UHGV virus genome: UHGV-1686243
Reading direction: 5' to 3' (one strand)
From: a virus
DNA length: 24,442 nt
The position numbers and the translations under genes were made by a program. The notes beneath the pieces were generated by a model. That model was not told the origin of the DNA, did no database searches, and saw only the letters and a program-made list of their open reading frames with translations. Shown piece after piece: positions 5,946-24,442 of this stretch. Position 1 is the stretch's first letter. Each line of letters starts with the position of its first letter.

Positions 5946-6014
5946 CACTTATCTGTTCTCACATAAATCACACACTTTTTACACTCACAGCTTTCTCTAT
6001 AGTTGGAGTGTATT

Positions 6015-7400
6015 TTGAACAAATCAGTTACTTCTGCGCTTTCCGGGGCCGCAGATATTAACAGCGTCATTGCTCTGGTTTCTTCATTAGAGAGGAAAGA
6101 AACACGCCTGGGGCGAAGTAGCTACGTAGTCACCAGCAAAGGTGCAGAGGTAAAGACGGCTTTTAAGGTCGTTGATGCCAGCAGTCTGATCATTTCGAAC
6201 AACCTTGACGGTACGATTAACCCGGCCTTCCCGGAAGAACTCCAACCACGAGATCGTACCCGGTTATCCAGCAAACTCCAGGTTAACCGTATTGCCTCCA
6301 ATTTACGCCCGGCACAATTAACGGATTCCGGTATGAGCAGCCACGGAGCGCCGATAGTTGGTCCGGACAACGTTGTTGAATCCGGCAACGGAAGGAGTAT
6401 GGGTATCTGGCGTGCCTATGAGCAAGGACAGGCGGATGAGTATCGCCAGTACCTGATCGACCATGCGAAAGAGTTTGGTCTGAATCCTGACGAAATTTCG
6501 CAAATGTCTATGCCCGTACTGGTGCGAGAAAGACTCACAGATGTAGACCGCGCTCAATTTGCCCGCGATTCAAACATTAGCGATCTGCAAGAGATGGCAG
6601 CAAGTGAAAAAGCGTATGCGGATGCGCAATTTCTCACTGAGAGCGTCATGGCGCTATTTAATCCTTCAGATGATGGAAATCTGCTGGCGCGGTCCAATGA
6701 TGCGTTTATTCGTGCGTTTTTGCGCGAAATTGGCGATACAGCGACAGCAGGCTTGCTTACTGCCGATGGGCGTCCCACGAAACAGCTTATCGATCGCATC
6801 CAGAATGCAATTTTTGCCAAAGCGTACAAGGATGAAAGGCTTGTTCGGCTGGTGTCGGAAGAGCCAGATCCGGAAATGCGTAATATCCTGACCGCATTAA
6901 ATACGGCAGCCAGCGATTTTGCGCAAATGCAGTCGCTGTCTGGCGACGCTCACCATGACGCAGTAACAGGCTTAGTGGACGGTATAGAGCAGGTTAATGG
7001 CCTGGATACACAGGCGATAGCAGCACTCCAGGAAGCAATTAATCTTGTACGTGAAGCCAAAGACAACGGTCAGGCCGTTGAAGAAGTGATCGCCCAAAGG
7101 GGGTTATTCGGCGACAGTACACCGGAAGCTGAGGCATTGGCGTTATTCATCGTAGCAAATAATCGCAGTGCGAAGCGTATGGGGGCAGCATTCAAAAAAA
7201 TGGCGCAAAAAATCAACGACGAGCTGACTCATAAACAACAGGCATTGGGCGATATGTTCGGCGGTGGCGATGTTGATCTGCGTCGTATTTTGTCTGCTGT
7301 ATCTGATGAAATTGAGGGTGAATTTGGCGAAGGGAAAGGTCTGAACTTTGCTATGTTTGAAAATTCTACAGATCTAAATAATTGCCGTACGGAAAACTAA
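6015..7400 (+). CDS. ParB/Srx-fold domain protein (possible DdrB-type virion protein)
   Basis: Start is uncertain: TTG 6015 has GGAG 7 nt upstream, TTG 6003 has none. The N-terminal region ...RLSSKLQVNRIASNLRPAQLTDSGMSSHGAPIVGPDNVVESGNGRSMGIWRAY... fits the ParB-nuclease pattern (S..G.PI.V...vv.G.hR..A). Confidence 0.4.
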   Translation: MNKSVTSALSGAADINSVIALVSSLERKETRLGRSSYVVTSKGAEVKTAFKVVDASSLIISNNLDGTINPAFPEELQPRDRTRLSSKLQVNRIASNLRPAQLTDSGMSSHGAPIVGPDNVVESGNGRSMGIWRAYEQGQADEYRQYLIDHAKEFGLNPDEISQMSMPVLVRERLTDVDRAQFARDSNISDLQEMAASEKAYADAQFLTESVMALFNPSDDGNLLARSNDAFIRAFLREIGDTATAGLLTADGRPTKQLIDRIQNAIFAKAYKDERLVRLVSEEPDPEMRNILTALNTAASDFAQMQSLSGDAHHDAVTGLVDGIEQVNGLDTQAIAALQEAINLVREAKDNGQAVEEVIAQRGLFGDSTPEAEALALFIVANNRSAKRMGAAFKKMAQKINDELTHKQQALGDMFGGGDVDLRRILSAVSDEIEGEFGEGKGLNFAMFENSTDLNNCRTEN

Positions 7401-7464
7401 ACCAACCGCTGAAATCACATACTGATTATGCTGCCGCAAAACTGGAAACAATTTGCGGTGATTC

Positions 7465-9147
7465 ATGGCAACGAAAGACAAAAACAAAGGCTTTCTGTCA
7501 GCATTGAAGAAAGCCTTCAACGGTGGTGATGTTACGCCCGCCGATCCGGTCGTTTTTACGAGCGGACATAGTGTCGTTGCTCGTTCCGGCCTGTCTGCTT
7601 TACGTCCAGGCATCCTGGGGAGCAATAGCGATGGCATGACGAGTGAAGCAGATTCAATTTCTTTATCCGCTGAACTGCCCGGCGAGCGCCTGCAAAAGTA
7701 CAACATCCTGGAAACGATGGCTAAAAGCCCGACTATCTCGACGGCTTTAAATATTCACATTGCACATGCGCTTGCGCCTTCAAAAAAAACCGGACAAGCA
7801 TTCATCCTTTCGCCAAAGGATGGTTCCGATGCCGAGGCAGTAAGTAGATGTGAAGAGTTAACCGCTGATTTGGGGGCGATGATTAATGACGGACTTCCTT
7901 CATGGGCCATGATTATGGCGATCTTTGGGGTGTCTTATGTCCGACCTTATGCTGAACAGGGCAGGGGGATAACAGGCATTGAGTCCAGTTATTACACTCT
8001 GCCACACTTCGTCCAGGAGTTTTATCGTGGTAGCCAGCTGGTAGGTTTCAGTGGTGATTACATTCTGGATACGCATAGTTTGCGCAGAGTAATAACCGAA
8101 CCGTGGAATCTGGTTTCCATGAAAAATCCCTATTGGACGCCACAGCATAAAGTTATTCCGGTTAGCTACGGCACAAAAGGGTACTCACTGTTAAGTGATC
8201 AGGCTGATAAGCCGTTAATGGAGACGCAGAATTACGGAACTTCATTCCTGGAATACAGCTATGAACCTTACCTTAATTTATGTGCTTCGCTCGCCGCGCT
8301 GAAATCAACGCGAAATAATGCAGCCAAAATTGACCGCCTGATTGCTCTTACGACGAACACACTGGACCCGGTTAATGCGGCGAACTATACGCGTGGCGTC
8401 AGCCAGGCATTGAAGCGTCATAGTGACCTGGTGGCGCAAAGGTCGATTAATGCCAACGCTATTCCGACTGTGCTTAACCATCTGATACCTGTTATGGGAG
8501 ACGGGAAGAACGGCATCACCATTGATACGCAATCCATACCCGCAGATATCAGTGGTATTGAAGACGTTATGTTTCACCTCCGGCAGCTTGCTGCAAGCCT
8601 CGGCATTGACGCAACAATGCTTGGCTGGGCTGATCAGATGAGCGGAGGGCTTGGAGAAGGCGGCTGGCAGCAAACTGCTATCCAGGCTGCATTGCGTGCG
8701 AACTGGATCAGACAGGCCGCCCAGCGAACTATTTATCGGCTTCTGGACATTCACCTCGCTTATAAATACGGCAAGGTTTACACCGAAACAAACCGCCCTT
8801 ATGACGTGCAATTCAACTCAATGAACACTGCTATCCAGGAAGAGGAAAACCGAGAACTGGATGCACGCGCCAACTTTGTTGCTGTCATCTCCCAAATTAT
8901 GGACCAGATCCAGAACAACCCGAAACTGGCTGGTAGCGACGCGTTTATGCGTTATCTGTTCACTGAGCAGTTGCACATCGACGATGACACTCTCAACACC
9001 ATGATCAAAGAGTTTAAGGCGAATGAATCAGAGCAAAACAACGAGCATGGTATGTACGAATCCGCGCCGTTGTCGTCCGGTGACGATCCGGAAAACTGGA
9101 CGCCAGAACAGTTAATAAACTTTGCAAAATTTGTGATGAGCAATTAA
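7465..9147 (+). CDS. portal-like head protein (putative)
   Basis: The 560-aa protein has no Walker A motif, so it is not a large terminase. Its size and its position directly before a coiled-coil protease/scaffold-like gene suggest a portal. The call is weak. Confidence 0.3.
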   Translation: MATKDKNKGFLSALKKAFNGGDVTPADPVVFTSGHSVVARSGLSALRPGILGSNSDGMTSEADSISLSAELPGERLQKYNILETMAKSPTISTALNIHIAHALAPSKKTGQAFILSPKDGSDAEAVSRCEELTADLGAMINDGLPSWAMIMAIFGVSYVRPYAEQGRGITGIESSYYTLPHFVQEFYRGSQLVGFSGDYILDTHSLRRVITEPWNLVSMKNPYWTPQHKVIPVSYGTKGYSLLSDQADKPLMETQNYGTSFLEYSYEPYLNLCASLAALKSTRNNAAKIDRLIALTTNTLDPVNAANYTRGVSQALKRHSDLVAQRSINANAIPTVLNHLIPVMGDGKNGITIDTQSIPADISGIEDVMFHLRQLAASLGIDATMLGWADQMSGGLGEGGWQQTAIQAALRANWIRQAAQRTIYRLLDIHLAYKYGKVYTETNRPYDVQFNSMNTAIQEEENRELDARANFVAVISQIMDQIQNNPKLAGSDAFMRYLFTEQLHIDDDTLNTMIKEFKANESEQNNEHGMYESAPLSSGDDPENWTPEQLINFAKFVMSN

Positions 9148-19500: not shown

Positions 19501-20371
19501 GGCATACCGTTTATTCCAGGGCAGGATGAAAGCCTTTAGCAATATCGATGATATTGAACGGATGTTTAATCAGGTCAAGATCGCGAAAATTAAGGCGAAG
19601 ATCGAAAAAACACGTTCTGCGCTGGTGGCCTGGCGCGATGCATTGTTTGAGCAATATAAATCACTCAGTGATGCAGATGGATGGGCGGCATTGGAACAGC
19701 TGGCGAATAATGGGGTAGATGGAGCGAAACTCGCCATTGTTCAGGCTGATAACCCCCTGGAATCACCGGCAGCACAGTGGATTAAGGTGGGGGCTGTCAT
19801 CAATGCATTTGATGAAAAACACATTAGTAAGGACGATTTTGCTGATGCTGTTTCTGTTAATCGCCTGGTAGAAATGGCTACCCGCCGCGCACGTGAGTTG
19901 AAAGACGGCGACTATGTGAATGAGTTGCCGGATACGCTCAAATCGGCAACGTGGCAGGACTATGTATCGCTGAAAAACGGCGGGGCCACTGAATCAGAGA
20001 TCGCGGAAAGGCTTGAGCAGGCTGAAAGCAAAAGAGAAGAGCAGGCGGCAGTGGCTGAAGCCAGAGCTGATGAAGCGGCGAATGATGACTATATCATTGT
20101 GGTTAATGATAAGCCGATTCGCGCTAAGGCGCGTGTTCGCGGGCGCTGGTGGAGCGTCAGCGAGGACGTTGGCGCGGTTTATCTCATTGCCGACCAACCA
20201 GGTTCCTCGACAATACGGAACGCCAAAGACGCGATTAAGAAGATTGGCGGGCGTTTCTGGAATTTTGAAGCAAACCCGGTTGCTGATGTGAACTTTGACC
20301 GTCCTGCATGGATGGTATCTACGCGTTACTCGGTAGATGAACTGCGTAAAATAATCGCCGATGCGGCCTAA
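13535..20371 (+). CDS. darB: DarB-like giant anti-restriction protein: N6-adenine methyltransferase fused to an SF2 (DExH/SNF2-like) helicase
   Basis: TTG start 7 nt after a strong AGGGGG RBS. 2,278 aa. MTase motif I VLEPSAGTGIF and motif IV-like GNVPFGE; helicase motifs GFGTGLGKTTTALAL (I), VIADEGHNYRN (II), VMLTATPLVNS (III), IDQRNGRGARVG (VI). Size and architecture match recalled P1 DarB (about 2,255 aa). The gene symbol is assigned by architecture and synteny, not by alignment. Confidence 0.7.
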   Translation: MDKLLHSISEASSLGELIEIVSRLHKLRAVATFGVRKADGVSIQKTRRAANNAAVNLLNSLPPGFDGAKLTDKQRQILAGYTGEGGLTDGEGSQYEYYTPQFMAEGIWDLFADYGIDGGHVLEPSAGTGIFQETKRQGMIMTSAELSPISGRINQLLHPEDDVNIGAFEALAAKDAMYDHAVGNVPFGEGRSGVAGLDPAYANEKNVGNYFVLRTIDKVKPGGLIVLVVPNGMTDGTKYKKLRDKVSRKAEFLGAHRMPSGTFSESGTDTVVDVWVLRKHPETFLEMIPDTDDSTLKSANVLWDTFLKGKWFTTEGKRFVYGDMERTSFRNTLVVKKDGRVSNESMKTALSRRFDSRINWDLLGVTTQAWQGAKVGDKRLVGGIWHEFDGLKWVKDTTTKSSALDVSRYGVSTFGDLQIAFQSTNGILALSWDQISAIASDYPSVVSDEVAAMIRFAGKQREKDRERVMRGALIGQLINKALDLRNLGVNVDDKLADASRLAAAEVAKYGPPHAIKLNGLAEAGAKNWMTFTGNVKQDGSTSDLLAGRLDVTDGAAGIDFTRPEQVIAHLFSDVALNPITLGDFREAFAGELPEDDDAALEYLAKFDDIAIDGYGCLLPMDRATSGDVATKTALLVGWRDASTGEQKANFERQLAKIEEKRIFTPLNKVTVNLNARWLDRRLIKEFLAEQGYDEFKYTEPDLKVVDGILVSPDDYEGKDGVFTGYQLRTVNGKNGNEFKKANNKDGFLNQLENYLNGVKPRGQNANEYLDKIAQLEVSFNDWLRTHPQADQIARDYNDAFNGFIPFTHSDAPLGLEGISGKRIPLTYQNEEVRRLSEDGRGIMGFGTGLGKTTTALALEAYNFETGRTKRTCIVVPKAVYQNWYHEAQSFYSADAFANMMFIGLDEVRDDGGNILTAPVLDENGEPRLDSNGQPLTRNVVKESASAVIVQRMNMIPSSNWRTVIMTKEQFASIPLREKTIEENSQQAVFNAVEMGRLDLASGKHRDAQKKNKIKDQAANTGTTKKQNIPYFEDMNFDSVIADEGHNYRNSFNAGREAGQLAYLPNPAVSKMARDMAVKAAYMMKRNNGRGVVMLTATPLVNSPIDAFNMLSTVIPQEEWMRMGIITPDDFVRVFGKTATVQVQKISGEVEEKQGLVGFQNLDGLRGIFHRWTTLKTAADVGATVKIPDIIENTLQIPMTGEQETAYEELRKRAQELSRNDELTVDENGHITNDKPDDFIFSIIRDMDKVAIDPDLYASAITFQFPVELADQVKAIADALPKVAGGKVADDVDEAEEDGAGGLVSTRTSKVVKTAFSEHPTHVEIRASIELEAEILKAIAAAGIDMQQVSHPIPPKYAALIENLREGLKNGKQIVFIDEKAQHQKLRRIIASALQMPEQEIGIINATTVSQAGGIKLKKVNKPTEPTPNKNGEYKEGAWETYYSKLAQYEDYLSAKNDAGLEGMEGIAADYNEGRTRIIICNKKAEVGINLHIGTTDIHHLTLPWTPASIDQRNGRGARVGSPQEKVNVHYYCGKGTFDDFRLDTLKRKKDWIKMVMTSDMSEIANGDADDADERAIMLAANPEERRAIMARQAQEREERLKLKAQREANNALDIYLKAANAAGKDIGMMETELKSAMEQIEHYQRNLDDLIKAGTNRNGQKYALEQLSSYRKRARVLKFAITRAKDADTIMKRSRGDVERAIKSGVLDISIDVIQNPQEYMRTDKNILLHKGSYYRAVIDDRETTAIVRVEKIDGEKAQYLCRIAWLDRASRYARAPGSIVTLPFDSVIEAVTFEEGVAESRATAARGVQCHQLSTILTRDQFYDAIRNGVMNVIAGKPGNAWGGGSAIKYWAYRTDDGQIALSSAYDGVIGQKIGRASDIAPERWIYPDGNDEALKREVAKIQASDNPLNIVDGEGFLQALYGYDYTQGMQAWGAQATMDDVAQEFENWMAGRGLSGRSLNKVTSEDILSLFRKPSGEGLESFWRTVLAYRLFQGRMKAFSNIDDIERMFNQVKIAKIKAKIEKTRSALVAWRDALFEQYKSLSDADGWAALEQLANNGVDGAKLAIVQADNPLESPAAQWIKVGAVINAFDEKHISKDDFADAVSVNRLVEMATRRARELKDGDYVNELPDTLKSATWQDYVSLKNGGATESEIAERLEQAESKREEQAAVAEARADEAANDDYIIVVNDKPIRAKARVRGRWWSVSEDVGAVYLIADQPGSSTIRNAKDAIKKIGGRFWNFEANPVADVNFDRPAWMVSTRYSVDELRKIIADAA

Positions 20372-20407
20372 CAGATAAGGAGCGGCCCCAACTGGGGCCG
20401 AATTTGA

Positions 20408-20842
20408 ATGACGACATTAATTGACACTGTAAAACCGACGGAATCCTACCTTGAGGACATTTTGCCGCAGGCGCTCAATGGCAGGAGTGAAGAGGCGTTT
20501 CTGGATGCATATCTGAATGGCATGGTGGAAAGGCTGAAACGAGATCCACAGCTTTATCACCTTTATGGGCCGTGGTGGCCTGCGCTTAAAACGTTATTGC
20601 TGGAGCGCGGCGACATATCATTTGGACAAGTTGTAGATAGTGATGTGGCAGAGATCTACAAAATGAGTCGCCCGGCGCTTACGGTTTTGGCTGGGCATCT
20701 GTATTCGAGCGATCGCCTGGAAAATGACGCGGTATACAATCCTGTTCATGCTCTGGAAGTCGCACCTTATGCCGATGATACAGAGCCATACGTGTACACA
20801 AGTTACGACGAGTCTATAGAGAAATATCGAATTATGGGGTAG
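20408..20842 (+). CDS. hypothetical protein (144 aa)
   Basis: ATG start. A GGCCCC-aact-GGGGCC hairpin sits between the darB stop and this start. No recognisable motif. Confidence 0.5.
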   Translation: MTTLIDTVKPTESYLEDILPQALNGRSEEAFLDAYLNGMVERLKRDPQLYHLYGPWWPALKTLLLERGDISFGQVVDSDVAEIYKMSRPALTVLAGHLYSSDRLENDAVYNPVHALEVAPYADDTEPYVYTSYDESIEKYRIMG

Positions 20843-20844
20843 CC

Positions 20845-21105
20845 ATGCGAAAGAATCGTAGGTTTACGGTCGAAGACCTAAAGGAATATTCCATATCGAA
20901 GGGGTATATCCTTGAGTTCCACCGATACAAGAAGGTTTTTACGCTGCGAAAAGCAGAAAACCCTGCGAACTGGAGCTGGATATACTTTCCTCACACCGAT
21001 GATAAGTTGGTAGAACTTGTTGATGATTTAACCTATGAAGGTTGGTTGATCGCAATCGACAAGACAATCAAAGAATTATCCGAACAGGATAAAATAACCC
21101 TTTAA
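20845..21105 (+). CDS. hypothetical protein (86 aa), AT-rich coding sequence
   Basis: ATG is 2 nt after the upstream stop, with a GGGG RBS. Composition is visibly more AT-rich than the flanking genes. Confidence 0.45.
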   Translation: MRKNRRFTVEDLKEYSISKGYILEFHRYKKVFTLRKAENPANWSWIYFPHTDDKLVELVDDLTYEGWLIAIDKTIKELSEQDKITL

Positions 21106-21241
21106 AAATAACAGGTTGGGTAAATGCCATGCGATTTACCCTCCTTGTTGATTAAGGTCACTCTTTACTCTAAAAGCAAATCCGACCTGTTGCATATAGA
21201 CCATCCTTGAGTAGTATCTCTCTTGTTTTACAAATCTAACG

Positions 21242-21736
21242 TTGTTGTTATTATTTCGCATATTTACTATCAATGGGTGTGTTAGAAAAATAGCGCGAAA
21301 GAGAAGGCGTCGCAGTGAATATTCTGAAACATCCCCACATGCCGCAGCTCTTAGAGAACTGGAGAAAAACCCAGATCTAATCAAAAGGAACCATGAGCAT
21401 TACGAGCAGGTTCGCGTCCTGGACTGGATGTATCGCAATATGCGTTATGTGTATGAGCATACTCACGCCACTCCAAACGGTGGCCTGCGAGGCATAAGGA
21501 CGGCAATAAAAATGGTGGCAGAGGGCCAAAAGAAGGGATATCCCGATCTTTCTATAGACCTTGCTTGTGGGGGATACCACGGAATGCGCATTGAGATGAA
21601 ACATGGGAGAAATCGCCTGACTCCCGAACAACTCGTCTGGATGACTCGCCTCACAGAAGCCGGTTACTACTGCTTTGAGGCGCGCAGTGCCGCTGAAGCC
21701 ATAAAAGCTATCACGGAGTATGTTTGTCTTGATTAA
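21242..21736 (+). CDS. VRR-NUC domain nuclease (PD-(D/E)xK superfamily)
   Basis: C-terminal ~100 aa ...GYPDLSIDLACGGYHGMRIEMKHGRNRLTPEQLVWMTRLTEAGYYCFEARSAAEAIKAITEY fit the VRR-NUC signature. The start is uncertain: there is no in-frame ATG or GTG before the domain, only TTG 21242/21245, and a motif copy lies inside the predicted N-terminus. Confidence 0.55.
   Translation: MLLLFRIFTINGCVRKIARKRRRRSEYSETSPHAAALRELEKNPDLIKRNHEHYEQVRVLDWMYRNMRYVYEHTHATPNGGLRGIRTAIKMVAEGQKKGYPDLSIDLACGGYHGMRIEMKHGRNRLTPEQLVWMTRLTEAGYYCFEARSAAEAIKAITEYVCLD
21279..21289 (+). promoter_or_regulatory. GTGTTAGAAAA motif copy upstream of / within the 5' end of the VRR-NUC frame
   Basis: Exact motif match. Confidence 0.3.
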
Positions 21737-21750
21737 ACGGAGAAATCGTT

Positions 21751-21951
21751 TTGCGTTTACTTAACGTGGCAGAACTTATCCCTGCAGGAACTAATGCTAT
21801 CGCTCGTCGTCGCTCATGGCAGCAGGCACTATGTATTGAGATCTCGAAACGTATCAATGGAAGTTTTGAAGCTCGCAATATTGTTACTGGCGATAAGGTT
21901 CACATAACCCCGGAAAGTGCAAGCGCTGATGATTGGGAGTTTGTACATTGA
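21751..21951 (+). CDS. DUF2829-like small protein, second copy (candidate Tad2-type sponge)
   Basis: TTG start with GGAG 8 nt upstream. The 66-aa protein has N-terminal ...PAGTNAIARRRSWQ... and C-terminal ...SADDWEFVH, the same pattern as the ORF at 12668. Confidence 0.35.
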   Translation: MRLLNVAELIPAGTNAIARRRSWQQALCIEISKRINGSFEARNIVTGDKVHITPESASADDWEFVH

Positions 21952-22247
21952 GCAAAAAATATTATGTTAGTCTGGCGTTCGCTGACGATGCGGGGAGGAC
22001 GCGGAGTATCACGTTGAGCACACCGGTTAAGGCTGTGACAGCGCCGTTAATCCGTGAAGCTCTCAGAGAGCTGGAATTGGGGGAAAACTCGGCACTGTTG
22101 TCGGTTAGTTGGTTCGGGAAAATGTCAGAGAAACAATACGTGGATGGAGTTACCCCAATAACAGTAATGAGGCTACTTTCATTGCTGCAATGGGCCATCG
22201 TACCTGTATTTATCGCGTATCTTATTTATCAGGCTGCAACACAGTAA
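21933..22247 (+). CDS. small protein with C-terminal transmembrane anchor
   Basis: TTG start at 21933 or 21948. C-terminal hydrophobic segment VMRLLSLLQWAIVPVFIAYLIY. A strong terminator follows. Confidence 0.35.
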   Translation: MGVCTLSKKYYVSLAFADDAGRTRSITLSTPVKAVTAPLIREALRELELGENSALLSVSWFGKMSEKQYVDGVTPITVMRLLSLLQWAIVPVFIAYLIYQAATQ

Positions 22248-22253
22248 TTGCAT

Positions 22254-22282
22254 AAAAACCCGCCAATTAGCGGGTTTTTTGT
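22254..22282 (+). terminator. intrinsic terminator
   Basis: AACCCGC-caatta-GCGGGTT followed by TTTTTTGTTT, 7 nt after the stop codon. Confidence 0.75.
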
Positions 22283-22321
22283 TTATTGCATCTTCCGATA
22301 CCGTCATCAAACTAATAAAAT

Positions 22322-22332
22322 ATGTTAGAAAA
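22322..22332 (+). promoter_or_regulatory. ATGTTAGAAAA motif copy 28 nt upstream of the 407-aa gene start, preceded by CTAATAAAAT
   Basis: Exact core GTTAGAAAA followed by CTAATTT. Its position is consistent with a promoter or operator for the gene starting at 22361. Confidence 0.4.
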
Positions 22333-22360
22333 CTAATTTAACAAAGTGACGGGAACAGCA

Positions 22361-23569
22361 ATGAGTCAACACACTGATACTTCTAATCTGGAAATTATCT
22401 CGACAGCAATTGAAACGCTGCGCACACAAATCGCTCTTATACAGAAACGGAATCCGGGTGATGACCTGTCAAAGCGACTGCACGAGAGTGTCATTGCCAC
22501 TACAGATAACCTGGTGGCGGAAATCAACAAGCTGCTTGATGATGGGGCAGTTGATTACAATAAGCTGGTGGATCAGTTTGAGGAATACCAACAAGCCGTT
22601 AATGATGGCTTGATCCGTTTTTCACAAGTCACAGGCGTATCAGCGACAGTTGAAAGCCTGGGCGATGCAGTTAATCAATTTGCCGCGAATATGCGTAATG
22701 AGATCGGCAATCTGGAAGCGCGTCTTGAACAGGCAAATACACTGCGTAAATCTGCCGAAGCCGATTTGAACCGTTACAAAAAAGACTATCCGCCAAGCCT
22801 GACAAAGCGGCTGGATGTTGCGGAGAAGGATAACCGCACGCTGAAAAGAGAGCGCCGGGAACTAAAAGAGCGTTTAACCAAGCTCAATCAGCAATGCATT
22901 GATTATCAAGGCGAAGGCGTCACACTGCGTAAAAAGTTGGCTACAGCGCAGAGCATTATCGAAACATTAAAGCGAGAGTGTTCACAGCTTGGTCACGATC
23001 TGAACCGTGCTTGTGGCATGGGACAAAGACCAGAGACATTTCCACTTATGTATGATGGAAGGGATGCCATTGCCTACATCCATGAGTATCCGCACGGCCT
23101 GGTTGCGGAAACTGGGCAGCGTGGCGAAGCACTGCTGACGGCTAATTACCATCAACAAATCAGAACTAATCGCCTGTTAACGATGGATGTGATCCCATCG
23201 GTATGGGGAACGCCGCTTTACTATCGCCTGCCGGGCTTCGAAAAGGACTGGAATACCGACATAGACGAATGTCTCGCAGATAAAATTATGGCGTACCTGG
23301 AGACGGATTTTCCGCGCTTATATCGCCGGATTATGGACTCTAAGGATGCGCCAATCGATGAATTAAAAATGCGTCCGGAGACGCTGGAGGCAATCAAGCA
23401 GACGGAGTTTGATACTGTATTCAGTGTGGCCTGCATTCCAAGCTGTTTCCATGAAAGCATTCCGTTCATGCAAGGAGATCGTCGTCAGGAAATCATTGAC
23501 GCTTGCCGGGTATGGGCGAACGAATGGGATAAGAAGAATGGGGGTGTAGAAGATCTTTACGGGAAATAA
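22361..23569 (+). CDS. coiled-coil protein of unknown function (403 aa)
   Basis: ATG 22361 is preferred over the GTG 22346 used in the ORF track. N-terminal ~220 aa are heptad-rich; the C-terminal half has no recognisable motif. Confidence 0.55.
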   Translation: MSQHTDTSNLEIISTAIETLRTQIALIQKRNPGDDLSKRLHESVIATTDNLVAEINKLLDDGAVDYNKLVDQFEEYQQAVNDGLIRFSQVTGVSATVESLGDAVNQFAANMRNEIGNLEARLEQANTLRKSAEADLNRYKKDYPPSLTKRLDVAEKDNRTLKRERRELKERLTKLNQQCIDYQGEGVTLRKKLATAQSIIETLKRECSQLGHDLNRACGMGQRPETFPLMYDGRDAIAYIHEYPHGLVAETGQRGEALLTANYHQQIRTNRLLTMDVIPSVWGTPLYYRLPGFEKDWNTDIDECLADKIMAYLETDFPRLYRRIMDSKDAPIDELKMRPETLEAIKQTEFDTVFSVACIPSCFHESIPFMQGDRRQEIIDACRVWANEWDKKNGGVEDLYGK

Positions 23570-23570
23570 T

Positions 23571-23581
23571 GTGTTAGAAAT
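23571..23581 (+). promoter_or_regulatory. GTGTTAGAAAT motif copy
   Basis: Match immediately after the stop of the 407-aa gene. Confidence 0.3.
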
Positions 23582-23726
23582 CTAAAATCACAATTCGAAT
23601 GTATTGATTGTGAAGATGACTTAACATAGAATTTTCCTTGCTGGTGGGCGGTACCCACGTTTCGCTTGCTGGGCTTGATAGTCACTTATTGGTTATTGTT
23701 TGCCCACCAGCAATTAACAAATTAAA

Positions 23727-23737
23727 GTGTTAGAAAA
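23727..23737 (+). promoter_or_regulatory. GTGTTAGAAAA motif copy followed by GTATAGT (-10-like)
   Basis: Exact match in the ORF-poor region. Confidence 0.35.
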
Positions 23738-24221
23738 GTATAGTAAGCCAAGAGCACGCTTTGGCACCGAGCAGACCAAAGTTCAACAGGTTTAGTGCGG
23801 AAAGTGGTTTCAGAGAGAGCACTTTGCGGAGTAAACGACAATACATGTTGAGCCACGGAAGGTCTTTTTAAGGTGTTCATTGATGATGGTCCGGCAGAGA
23901 GTAACGGTACATGCTGCATCTAATCATCAATGCACATCTTCAACATTAAGGAGGCATAGGGATTTTTGTGGCGGTTACCTTTTGCCCTGAGTCTCCTTAA
24001 TGTTGCAGTAATGCACCTATGCGGATGTGGCCTTGCATTGTGTCTTGAAAGAATGGGGTAAGGCCGGGGATATCCCCAGGGGGAGGCACCCCCGCTGCAA
24101 CGAACAGCCACAGACGGCAGTCGAGTGATGGAAACGTGCAAAGACTTTAAACCTCGTTACGGCTGGCGTGGCAAACGCGACAACCGAGACAGAGCGGTGA
24201 CGGGCGGAGAGAGTGCCGCAT

Positions 24222-24343
24222 CAAGAAAGAAGCCGACTTGTGATCCCTTTCAGCGGGCATTTGAAAGTGAATCCAGCTCAGGCAGTCGGCTTCTTTCTTG
24301 TGTGAGATGTAGCGTATTTGCCCATCTTCGGGTGGGCTTTTTT
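24222..24343 (+). ncRNA. candidate small RNA: 17-bp perfect-stem hairpin followed by a UUCG-loop intrinsic terminator
   Basis: CAAGAAAGAAGCCGACT (24222-24238) and AGTCGGCTTCTTTCTTG (24284-24300) are perfect reverse complements. GCCCAUC-UUCG-GGUGGGC plus U6 lies at 24320-24343. No credible ORF. Confidence 0.25.
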
Positions 24344-24442
24344 AGGGTTTTCGTCATGGTTAGCGACTTTGCGGCGGTTTAGAACCCGACCATTAAAGTA
24401 AATGCAAACGATGATCTGATGATGGTAGCGGCCTAAGAAGCC

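Follow-up and report, generated by a model that had tools for sequence, protein, structure and literature searches.

A conserved P1-type gene block downstream of darB in a D6-like plasmid prophage, with a probable Lxc-type co-repressor gene and predicted repressor operators

Introduction

The closest described relatives of the DNA considered here are phage P1 and Escherichia phage D6 (MF356679 / NC_050154), the latter a relative of P1 and a P1-like plasmid prophage. The present analysis concerns a stretch of 24,442 nucleotides from UHGV virus genome UHGV-1686243 (the whole of which is termed 'the window') and, within it, a block of six genes (positions 20372-23569; 3,198 bp) that lies immediately downstream of the anti-restriction gene darB.

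In P1, darB is followed by ulx and then by a coupled gene of approximately 85 codons, lxc (bof), after which the type III restriction-modification genes mod and res come next. P1 Ulx is described in two reports as a non-essential head (virion) protein that aids the localisation and incorporation of DarB (PMC9024508; PMC10695390). The former also describes the Dar proteins as packaged in the capsid, and they would therefore be made during virion assembly, not early. Lxc (Bof), according to the P1 record, strengthens the binding of the C1 repressor to its operators; those listed in the same record include Oc1, Olpa, OpmgRa/b, Odmt, Oref and Oban, the last of which is a divalent operator upstream of the tRNA-tci-ban operon.

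The pmgL-pmgS region of P1 holds pmgM, pmgR and pmgS in that order, with five genes (pmgN, O, P, ppp and Q) between pmgM and pmgR, and with repressor control at its pmgR/pmgS end (OpmgRa/b). P1 pmgR is reported to be essential and needed for head completion, its deletion (ΔpmgR) leaving heads and tails unjoined (PMC9024508); pmgM and pmgS are recorded as non-essential on the basis of the same survey of deletions (PMC10695390). The first study also reports that 24 of 29 single-gene knockouts in the pmg and upf classes displayed neither a plaquing defect nor a change in anti-restriction (PMC9024508), and the recorded non-essentiality of pmgM and pmgS suggests that both are among those 24.

A conserved block of mostly named genes

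Judged from its sequence, the region downstream of darB is a conserved block of genes, most of them already named, from a D6/P1-type plasmid prophage. A reading made earlier from the letters of the window alone (the original prediction), according to which the block is a candidate accessory island of early counter-defence genes, is upheld only in part. The block is identical to D6 at 99.5% of its nucleotides over its full length, and to several E. coli plasmids of approximately 90 kb (plasmid prophages) at 99.9%. The same six open reading frames (ORFs), in the same order, recur in D6 (orf14 to orf9) and in the D6-like plasmid prophages found in E. coli, Salmonella and Shigella, at 99.5-99.9% nucleotide identity over all 3,198 bp. 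In the D6 annotation these six genes are termed, in order, 'similar to P1 ulx', hypothetical, 'similar to P1 pmgM', hypothetical, 'similar to P1 pmgR' and 'similar to P1 pmgS'. Nothing substantive distinguishes the window from D6 inside the block; outside it, the window lacks D6 orf23 and orf24. The window as a whole corresponds to approximately 8.2-32.7 kb in D6 coordinates, and beyond the block it also carries hdf, darA, ddrA and ddrB (Dar anti-restriction genes), prt, pro, repL and darB.

The six ORFs all exist at the positions originally predicted (Table 1), but the description of them as mostly lacking a recognisable function does not hold, as four of the six are identified by sequence as homologues of named P1 genes. 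The 144-residue protein is a homologue of P1 Ulx (46% identity over 138 residues, E = 7e-45) and matches PHROG 1629, 'Ulx-like anti-restriction', at 2e-59. The 164-residue protein is a homologue of P1 PmgM (57% identity over 136 residues) and a predicted VRR-NUC nuclease, as had been proposed: it scores 27.0 bits on Pfam VRR_NUC (PF08774), for which the cut-off is 23.8 bits, and it retains a PD...(D/E)xK motif, read by eye as GYPDLSID...RIEMK (YPD...EMK). Its homology to P1 PmgM begins at residue 29, and the short start at 21428 chosen by the Prokaryotic Genome Annotation Pipeline (PGAP) is therefore too late.

P1 PmgR scores 29.7 bits on a hidden Markov model (HMM) of the D6-clade PmgR family, a score that none of 20,000 shuffled sequences reached, and the two align with a common GKM(S/T)E motif, which identifies the protein encoded by the fifth ORF as a PmgR homologue. 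The window protein has a predicted C-terminal transmembrane helix (mean hydropathy of 1.99 over residues 76-94), which P1 PmgR lacks. It was originally listed at 104 residues and most likely comprises 99, from a TTG codon at 21948 that overlaps the preceding stop codon as TTGA. The last protein, previously described as a coiled-coil protein of 403 residues, most likely starts at the ATG codon at 22361, which is the start conserved in relatives, giving a length of 402; it is identified as a PmgS homologue by its match to PHROG 1660 (1e-146) and by 21% identity to P1 PmgS over 415 residues (E = 1e-12). A Pantoea homologue of PmgS (L010:11566-12855) matches the Pfam family RNA_pol_A_CTD at 29.1 bits (cut-off 23.8) across residues 350-404, and this region aligns with the C-termini of the window and P1 proteins, a hint that the C-terminal domain of PmgS proteins is a helix-hairpin-helix. 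Scans against PADLOC and NCBIfam returned only coiled-coil noise, for PmgS.

The order pmgM, pmgR, pmgS is thus the same in the window as in P1, but a single gene of 66 codons stands where P1 has five genes between pmgM and pmgR, and the regulatory signals are placed differently: the window has an operator-like site before pmgS only and a terminator between pmgR and pmgS, in contrast to the C1 operators OpmgRa/b of P1.

A comparison across relatives speaks against an accessory region of varying content. At least 80% of the block is carried by 117 of the 126 related plasmids that display any match to it, and the order of the six genes is kept in a Shigella dysenteriae plasmid (70% nucleotide identity) and even in an Enterobacter plasmid (66%) in which only ulx still aligns at the DNA level. 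Measured against the Shigella relative, the ratio of nonsynonymous to synonymous substitution rates (dN/dS) lies between 0.10 and 0.15 for ulx, the 86-codon gene (0.10), pmgM and the 66-codon gene (0.15). For pmgR and pmgS, dS is saturated and yields no ratio, and the proportion of nonsynonymous differences (pN) is far below that of synonymous differences (pS). These values indicate that all six genes are under purifying selection.

Table 1. Coordinates of genes and signals in and around the block downstream of darB
Feature	Position in window	Strand	Length (aa)	Remarks
7-bp G+C hairpin, CGGCCCC-AACT-GGGGCCG	20383..20400	+		Between darB stop and ulx start
ulx homologue (D6 orf14; PGAP name 'olxA')	20408..20842	+	144	Putative helper packaging DarB into capsid
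86-aa gene (D6 orf13)	20845..21105	+	86	Probable remote homologue of P1 lxc (bof), at the equivalent position
Hairpin after 86-aa gene, GGGTAAAT-N8-ATTTACCC	21109..21150	+		Perfect 8-bp core at 21118-21141
pmgM homologue, predicted VRR-NUC (PD-(D/E)xK) nuclease	21242..21736	+	164	Start uncertain: TTG 21242 or 21245
Core-only GTTAGAAA copy	21281..21288	+		Inside pmgM 5' coding region; <8 bits
66-aa gene (D6 orf11), small beta-rich protein	21751..21951	+	66	Possibly a degenerate DUF2829/Tad2-like domain
pmgR homologue, predicted membrane-anchored	21948..22247	+	99	Likely TTG start; 104 aa from 21933
Intrinsic terminator closing pmgM-orf11-pmgR unit	22254..22285	+		Stem 22254-22279, then T-run
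Probable C1-repressor operator	22318..22340	+		Core 22324-22331; overlaps -10-like TAATTT, 21 nt before pmgS ATG
pmgS homologue	22361..23569	+	402	N-terminal coiled coil, C-terminal globular part; likely ATG start; 407 aa from 22346
Two operator-like sites (cores 23573, 23729) and late-promoter-like box AAATCACA (23585-23592)	23567..23745	+		Head of next unit, leading to tRNA genes and tciA

Ulx and a probable Lxc-type partner gene

The start of the block reproduces the P1 arrangement, in that darB, ulx and a coupled gene of similar size follow each other in the same order; the next genes are mod and res in P1 and pmgM-pmgS in the window. The darB stop codon at 20371 is followed by the ulx start at 20408, and the order darB-ulx is found in P1 and in 15 relatives. 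By analogy with P1, in which the activity has been demonstrated, and given the level of identity and the shared gene position, the Ulx of the window would help to load the large anti-restriction protein DarB into the capsid. The PGAP name 'olxA' yielded no relevant literature.

The 86-codon gene that follows ulx is, quite probably, the Lxc (Bof) gene of the D6 clade, on the strength of profile comparisons and of its position. The tight pairing of the two genes that had been pointed out earlier is confirmed, with a gap of 2 nt between the ulx stop codon (TAG, 20840-20842) and the next ATG (20845). The evidence for homology comes from families of sequences rather than single pairs. Relatives of the 86-residue protein were gathered from plasmids, from an exhaustive search of representatives and from ten genome loci located via alignment of Ulx. 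P1 Lxc scores 10.8 bits on an HMM of this family, a level reached by 7 of 50,000 shuffled sequences (p of approximately 1.4e-4). When the 24-member family was compared by hhalign with a profile of two Lxc sequences (from P1 and from the 'Ca. Pantoea alvi' locus L018), a probability of 93% and an E value of 3e-7 were obtained over 71 of 82 columns. At each of the ten genome loci, the ORF directly after ulx belongs either to the 86-residue family or to P1-type Lxc, never to both, and in the plasmid loci of four relatives this position holds the 86-residue (orf13) family. In locus L018 a P1-type Lxc is followed by pmgM...pmgR-pmgS, which is the D6 arrangement. No other Lxc homologue was found in D6, and the C1 repressor of D6 is just 21% identical to that of P1, so that a similarly diverged Lxc partner is to be expected.

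Several observations weigh against this assignment. A pairwise BLAST comparison of the window protein with P1 Lxc finds nothing; the identity between the two is only approximately 20%, and PHROGs separates the 86-residue family (6844) from Lxc (2160). The protein also matches no Pfam or NCBIfam family, its PHROG is without known function, and its family of homologues is narrow. An alternative is that the 86-residue protein is a further Dar accessory factor that is co-translated with Ulx and acts on the packaging of DarB, rather than an equivalent of Lxc. This is a rather unlikely explanation, which draws on the 2-nt spacing, on the fact that the gene always travels with darB-ulx, on the low similarity to Lxc (18-24%) and on an AlphaFold2 (AF2) model that produced no informative fold match. 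P1 lxc, however, likewise overlaps ulx and always follows it, and P1 Lxc is itself no component of the Dar system; moreover, the profile match spans nearly the full length of the family, and the two families never occur together behind ulx. If the 86-residue protein is indeed the Lxc/Bof of the D6 clade, then it would join the C1 repressor on its operators and tighten repression, as does its P1 counterpart.

The same gene had been singled out as visibly richer in A+T than its neighbours, and its G+C content is indeed 0.402, versus 0.483 and 0.473 for the genes on either side. Its third-position G+C content, 0.483, equals theirs, and the bias therefore reflects amino acid composition (the protein is rich in Lys, Glu, Ile and Tyr), not a foreign origin. 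Recent acquisition as a cause of the AT-richness was ruled out on this basis, together with the presence of the gene in all relatives.

Turnover, counter-defence and the gap between pmgM and pmgR

The original proposal that the six genes constitute an accessory, early-expressed island that neutralises host immunity is not without points in its favour. Ulx is part of the Dar anti-restriction system, P1 can do without pmgM and pmgS, and turnover does occur at greater evolutionary distance. The region after ulx-lxc acts as a cargo site over the long range, with type III restriction-modification genes in P1-like Escherichia elements and unrelated genes in one Enterobacteriaceae element (L017), and the slot between pmgM and pmgR may hold one small gene, a gene of 172-184 codons whose product is Tad2-like, or five genes (P1 and L018). 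Genuine Tad2-like genes are found in that slot in Pantoea, Leclercia and Citrobacter relatives.

Against this stand the lack of turnover within the D6 clade and the strong purifying selection described above; the morphogenetic role of PmgR in P1; the homology of the 86-residue protein to a repressor modulator; the synthesis of Dar proteins during virion assembly, as follows from their packaging in the capsid; and the unchanged anti-restriction of the 24 non-defective P1 knockouts, to which pmgM and pmgS presumably belong. No significant match to PADLOC or to an anti-defence family was obtained for the block, and the 66-residue protein lacks the Tad2 ligand residues. Taken as a description of the whole block, the counter-defence island is therefore improbable. 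A connection to counter-defence survives for Ulx, as a Dar helper, and weakly for the 66-codon gene, which occupies the slot of Tad2-like genes in distant relatives, but not for the rest.

Remote-homology and structure searches, proposed at the outset as a means of checking the prediction, did not place the 66-residue protein in Tad2: it failed Pfam and profile tests, and no Tad2 structure was among its best fold matches. The point of comparison is the Tad2 / DUF2829 family (PF11195), which comprises phage sponges for the Thoeris signal glycocyclic ADP-ribose (gcADPR). The earlier label 'DUF2829-like' for this protein was not borne out, in that it reaches no Pfam threshold: there is no match to PF11195 (cut-off 25 bits) at E values up to 1, nor up to 10 for three close homologues, and the Shigella orthologue attains 12.7 bits. 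When its family was compared by hhalign with an alignment of 19 Tad2 proteins, among them the bona fide Tad2-like product of D6 orf114 and two solved Tad2 proteins, the probabilities were only 2.7% and 1.8%. A sequence search of the PDB returned no match, and its AF2 model (predicted local distance difference test score, pLDDT, of 83.6) most closely resembles Tudor/SH3-like barrels (Z scores of at most 5.1), with no Tad2 structure among the best 50-60 fold matches. Homologues form only five clusters, and D6 is the sole match among phages.

Other features of the protein do recall Tad2. Two short motifs, ARRxxW and A-DWE-V, occur in the right order, and the predicted order of secondary structure elements (helix, two strands, two strands, short helix, strand) is that of SPO1 Tad2 minus the beta2-beta3 insertion, which the window protein lacks. 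A comparison of the D6-clade family with the Tad2-like slot proteins of relatives by hhalign gave P = 8e-4 over 54 columns but a probability of only 24%. SPO1 Tad2 contacts gcADPR through residues W25, N26, W73 and D79 (bioRxiv 10.1101/2023.05.01.538930); among these, only the first tryptophan has an equivalent (W23, invariant in the family), and counterparts of N26, W73 and D79 are not kept in the alignment. The chances that the 66-residue protein is a decayed or re-purposed DUF2829 domain are about even, and no function can be transferred to it.

The slot proteins of Pantoea (172 residues, with the domain at the C-terminus) and Leclercia (80 residues) score 26.0 bits, above the cut-off, and 19.2 bits, respectively, on the Pfam Tad2-like model; a Citrobacter slot ORF of 68 codons produces only a weak match (12.5 bits, E = 0.0015) to a custom Tad2 HMM; and as a group these proteins match Tad2 with an hhalign probability of 95.8%. 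It is conceivable, although we regard it as unlikely, that P1-family phage-plasmids share an anti-defence slot between pmgM and pmgR, occupied by Tad2-like sponges in Pantoea, Enterobacter, Citrobacter and Leclercia, and that the D6-clade protein is a minimal Tad2-derived sponge that lacks the beta2-beta3 insertion and binds a different immune signalling nucleotide.

Two further observations concern this family. In Pantoea and Enterobacter phage-plasmids (L010:10609-11127; L012-L015, approximately 7766-8321) the slot protein comprises 172-184 residues, of which the C-terminal 75 or so are Tad2-like; no assignment was obtained for the N-terminal part of approximately 95 residues. D6 itself encodes a genuine Tad2-like protein outside the window, orf114 (L007:13844-14284), which scores 81 bits on PF11195 and 76 bits against the solved prophage anti-Thoeris protein ModTad2 (9eib), and which has an N-terminal extension of approximately 57 residues.

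A dispersed operator and a separate late-promoter box

A short motif, GTTAGAAA, had been noted as punctuating the genes of the block. It is indeed enriched, with seven copies in the window versus 0.74 expected and no shuffled sequence reaching seven. Rather than marking off cassettes, it is the core of a regulatory site that is distributed over the genome, and is most likely the core of an operator of approximately 22 bp for the C1-type repressor of D6. Copies in or near the block have cores at 21281, 22324, 23573 and 23729. The D6 genome, which is 90% coding, contains 13 exact cores, of which 11 are intergenic, and the intergenic copies share a motif of approximately 22 bp with the consensus ATTTGTGTTAGAAAACTAATTT. 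A 23-bp matrix built from these intergenic D6 copies finds 15 sites in D6 (four of them outside the training set), versus 0.73 in shuffled sequences, and all 15 are intergenic.

The genes downstream of these sites are c1, lpa, pmgS, icd/ant, repL, hrdC-dmt (an inverted pair of sites), ref and pdcB (a pair); further sites lie on the cre side and, twice, before the unit of tRNA genes and tciA. The icd/ant and repL sites presumably correspond to Op51 and Op53 of P1. The C1 operators of P1 are 17-bp asymmetric sequences (ATTGCTCTAATAAATTT) that resemble the D6 sites in being dispersed, asymmetric and intergenic, in forming some inverted pairs and in occupying the same gene neighbourhoods. Read as its reverse complement (AAATTTATTAGAGCAAT), the P1 operator is similar to the D6 motif; the sites nevertheless differ in sequence, with the core GTTAGAAA in D6, in keeping with the divergence of the two C1 proteins.

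Within the block, the site at 22318..22340 carries the highest matrix score in the genome (31.3 bits), and the sites with cores at 23573 and 23729, just beyond it, score 29.0 and 23.6 bits. The sites before and after pmgS, including both of the latter cores, are conserved in the Shigella and Enterobacter relatives despite diverged surroundings, and are absent in Pantoea. The copy at 21281, which lies inside pmgM, matches the core only and scores below 8 bits, is probably not a full operator; its core is kept in the Shigella relative as the codons for Cys-Val-Arg and is absent in Enterobacter. Among the genes of the block, pmgS alone is clearly placed under a predicted operator, and by analogy with OpmgR of P1 it would be off in the prophage and expressed once the repressor has been inactivated. 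The description of the block as early is therefore plausible, in the sense of prophage-repressed, for pmgS only, which lies behind an operator-like site as do pmgR-pmgS in P1.

A different element, AAATCACA-N7-TAnnnT, probably serves the D6 clade as its Lpa-dependent late promoter. It lies 50-70 bp upstream of D6 prt, ddrB, R, pmgB, gene 23, gene 7, gene 26 and orf16, and 157 bp upstream of mat. It is akin to the late-promoter box of P1, AAGTGACTT-N4-(-10), and an identity of 31% between the Lpa proteins of D6 and P1 fits such a related box. In the window, AAATCACA boxes are located at 5965, 7412, 13432 (minus strand) and 23585; such a box lies just upstream of ddrB and of prt and, on the minus strand, of the lysozyme-like orf16.

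The rival possibility that GTTAGAAA together with TAnnnT is itself the Lpa-dependent late promoter, and the block a set of late morphogenetic operons, is highly improbable: a -10-like hexamer begins 2 nt after each intergenic copy, P1 late promoters likewise combine a box and a -10 element without a -35 element, and the pmg naming in P1 presumes late expression, but the idea was rejected once all D6 copies had been mapped, as no structural or late operon of D6 (prt, 23, 22, sit/pmgB, R-S, 7, 26, ddrB or lysis) has GTTAGAAA in promoter position, where AAATCACA-N7-TAnnnT is found instead, and as GTTAGAAA sites stand upstream of immunity and early genes (c1, lpa, ref, repL, icd/ant and dmt), several of them in inverted pairs that resemble bivalent operators.

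Three units rather than one system

From the observed homologies, motif distribution, conservation and structural signals we infer the biochemical functions of the genes, the pairing of operator and repressor and the promoter positions in the block, and arrive at a proposal that we consider likely: the segment that follows darB would be three units with different roles, rather than one functional system. The first, darB-ulx-lxc-like, would provide an anti-restriction protein carried in the capsid, the helper that loads it and a protein that modulates the prophage repressor. The second, pmgM-orf11-pmgR, is tightly packed (a gap of 14 nt, then an overlap of 4 nt) and would provide a VRR-NUC nuclease, a small beta protein and a head-completion factor, PmgR, that may complete heads or join heads to tails as in P1; it is closed by a strong terminator. 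The third would be pmgS, a single gene with its own promoter overlapped by an operator.

Certain observations fit less well with this arrangement. The -35 element of the pmgS promoter is poor, and because of this the overlap between promoter and operator is deduced from position only. No late box lies upstream of darB-ulx on the plus strand, and the best sigma-70 match near pmgM (21227-21254) overlies the annotated TTG start of that gene; the sigma-70 scan found fewer sites than expected by chance, and this single plus-strand hit was not relied on. The literature covered yielded no transcript, binding or genetic data for D6.

Other signals and neighbouring regions

Three structured elements accompany the genes. 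The hairpin between darB and ulx folds with -16.2 kcal/mol (z = -3.7; none of 200 shuffled sequences folds as well) and is not followed by a T-run. The perfect 8-bp hairpin that had been noticed after the 86-codon gene is present; its extended structure has a free energy of -17.7 kcal/mol (z = -3.1), likewise without a T-run, persists in the Shigella relative with a single G-U wobble and is deleted in the Enterobacter relative, and it is at most a weak terminator or an RNA-stabilising element. The third, the terminator after pmgR, is as strong as had been proposed (22254-22279; -15.5 kcal/mol, z = -4.1, with a T-run), and both its stem and its T-run persist in the Shigella and Enterobacter relatives despite divergence of the flanking sequences.

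Between the Lxc-like gene and pmgM, relatives from Pantoea, Enterobacter, Citrobacter and other hosts carry a conserved ORF of approximately 54 codons whose product, a predicted membrane protein (MxxFAQRDFVN...), has a C-terminal hydrophobic helix (L012-L018, approximately 6780-7040). It is absent in the D6 clade, in which a 136-bp spacer with the hairpin described above is found instead.

A real difference in gene content between close relatives, and one that is more island-like than the block, is seen elsewhere in the window. D6 orf23 and orf24 (the latter encoding a DUF4145 protein) are missing, such that ddrB (6003-7400) is directly followed by prt (7465-9147); positions 7401-7464 of the window thus stand opposite 25189-26332 of the D6 record.

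Downstream of pmgS, approximately 870 bp (23570-24442) contain no annotated gene before the tRNA genes; besides both operator-like sites, a hairpin that resembles a terminator (24320-24337) is found here. Although the corresponding position in P1 has a dicF-like region, an Rfam scan of 20000-24442 produced nothing near a gathering score and no DicF-like RNA. ARAGORN places genes for tRNA-Asn, tRNA-Thr and tRNA-Ser on the strand that also carries pmgS and tciA (L001:16433-17138; 7145-7850 in the D6 record, just past the end of the window), as opposed to the RefSeq and GenBank records of D6, which place them on the opposite strand. Together with the operator-like sites at 23573 and 23729, this tRNA unit looks like the D6 counterpart of the C1-controlled ban/tRNA operon of P1.

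Implications for D6-like plasmid prophages

What had appeared to be an island of mystery genes turns out to be a segment that is known, and conserved, in a family of plasmid prophages widespread in E. coli and Salmonella. The result is an ordinary one and mostly a matter of clean-up; its modest additions are the Lxc assignment, a reading of the operator and of the late box, and the recognition of a slot for Tad2-like genes in relatives. A 'hypothetical' gene of 86 codons, present in every D6-like plasmid, can be labelled as a probable Lxc/Bof-type co-repressor gene. The putative repressor operator and the probable late box of the D6 clade can be read from sequence, and may serve to predict which genes are silent in the prophage. 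The gap between pmgM and pmgR, where relatives keep Tad2-like genes, is a concrete place in which to look for anti-Thoeris activity in phage-plasmids. These by-products should help in the annotation of such elements, which often carry resistance genes.

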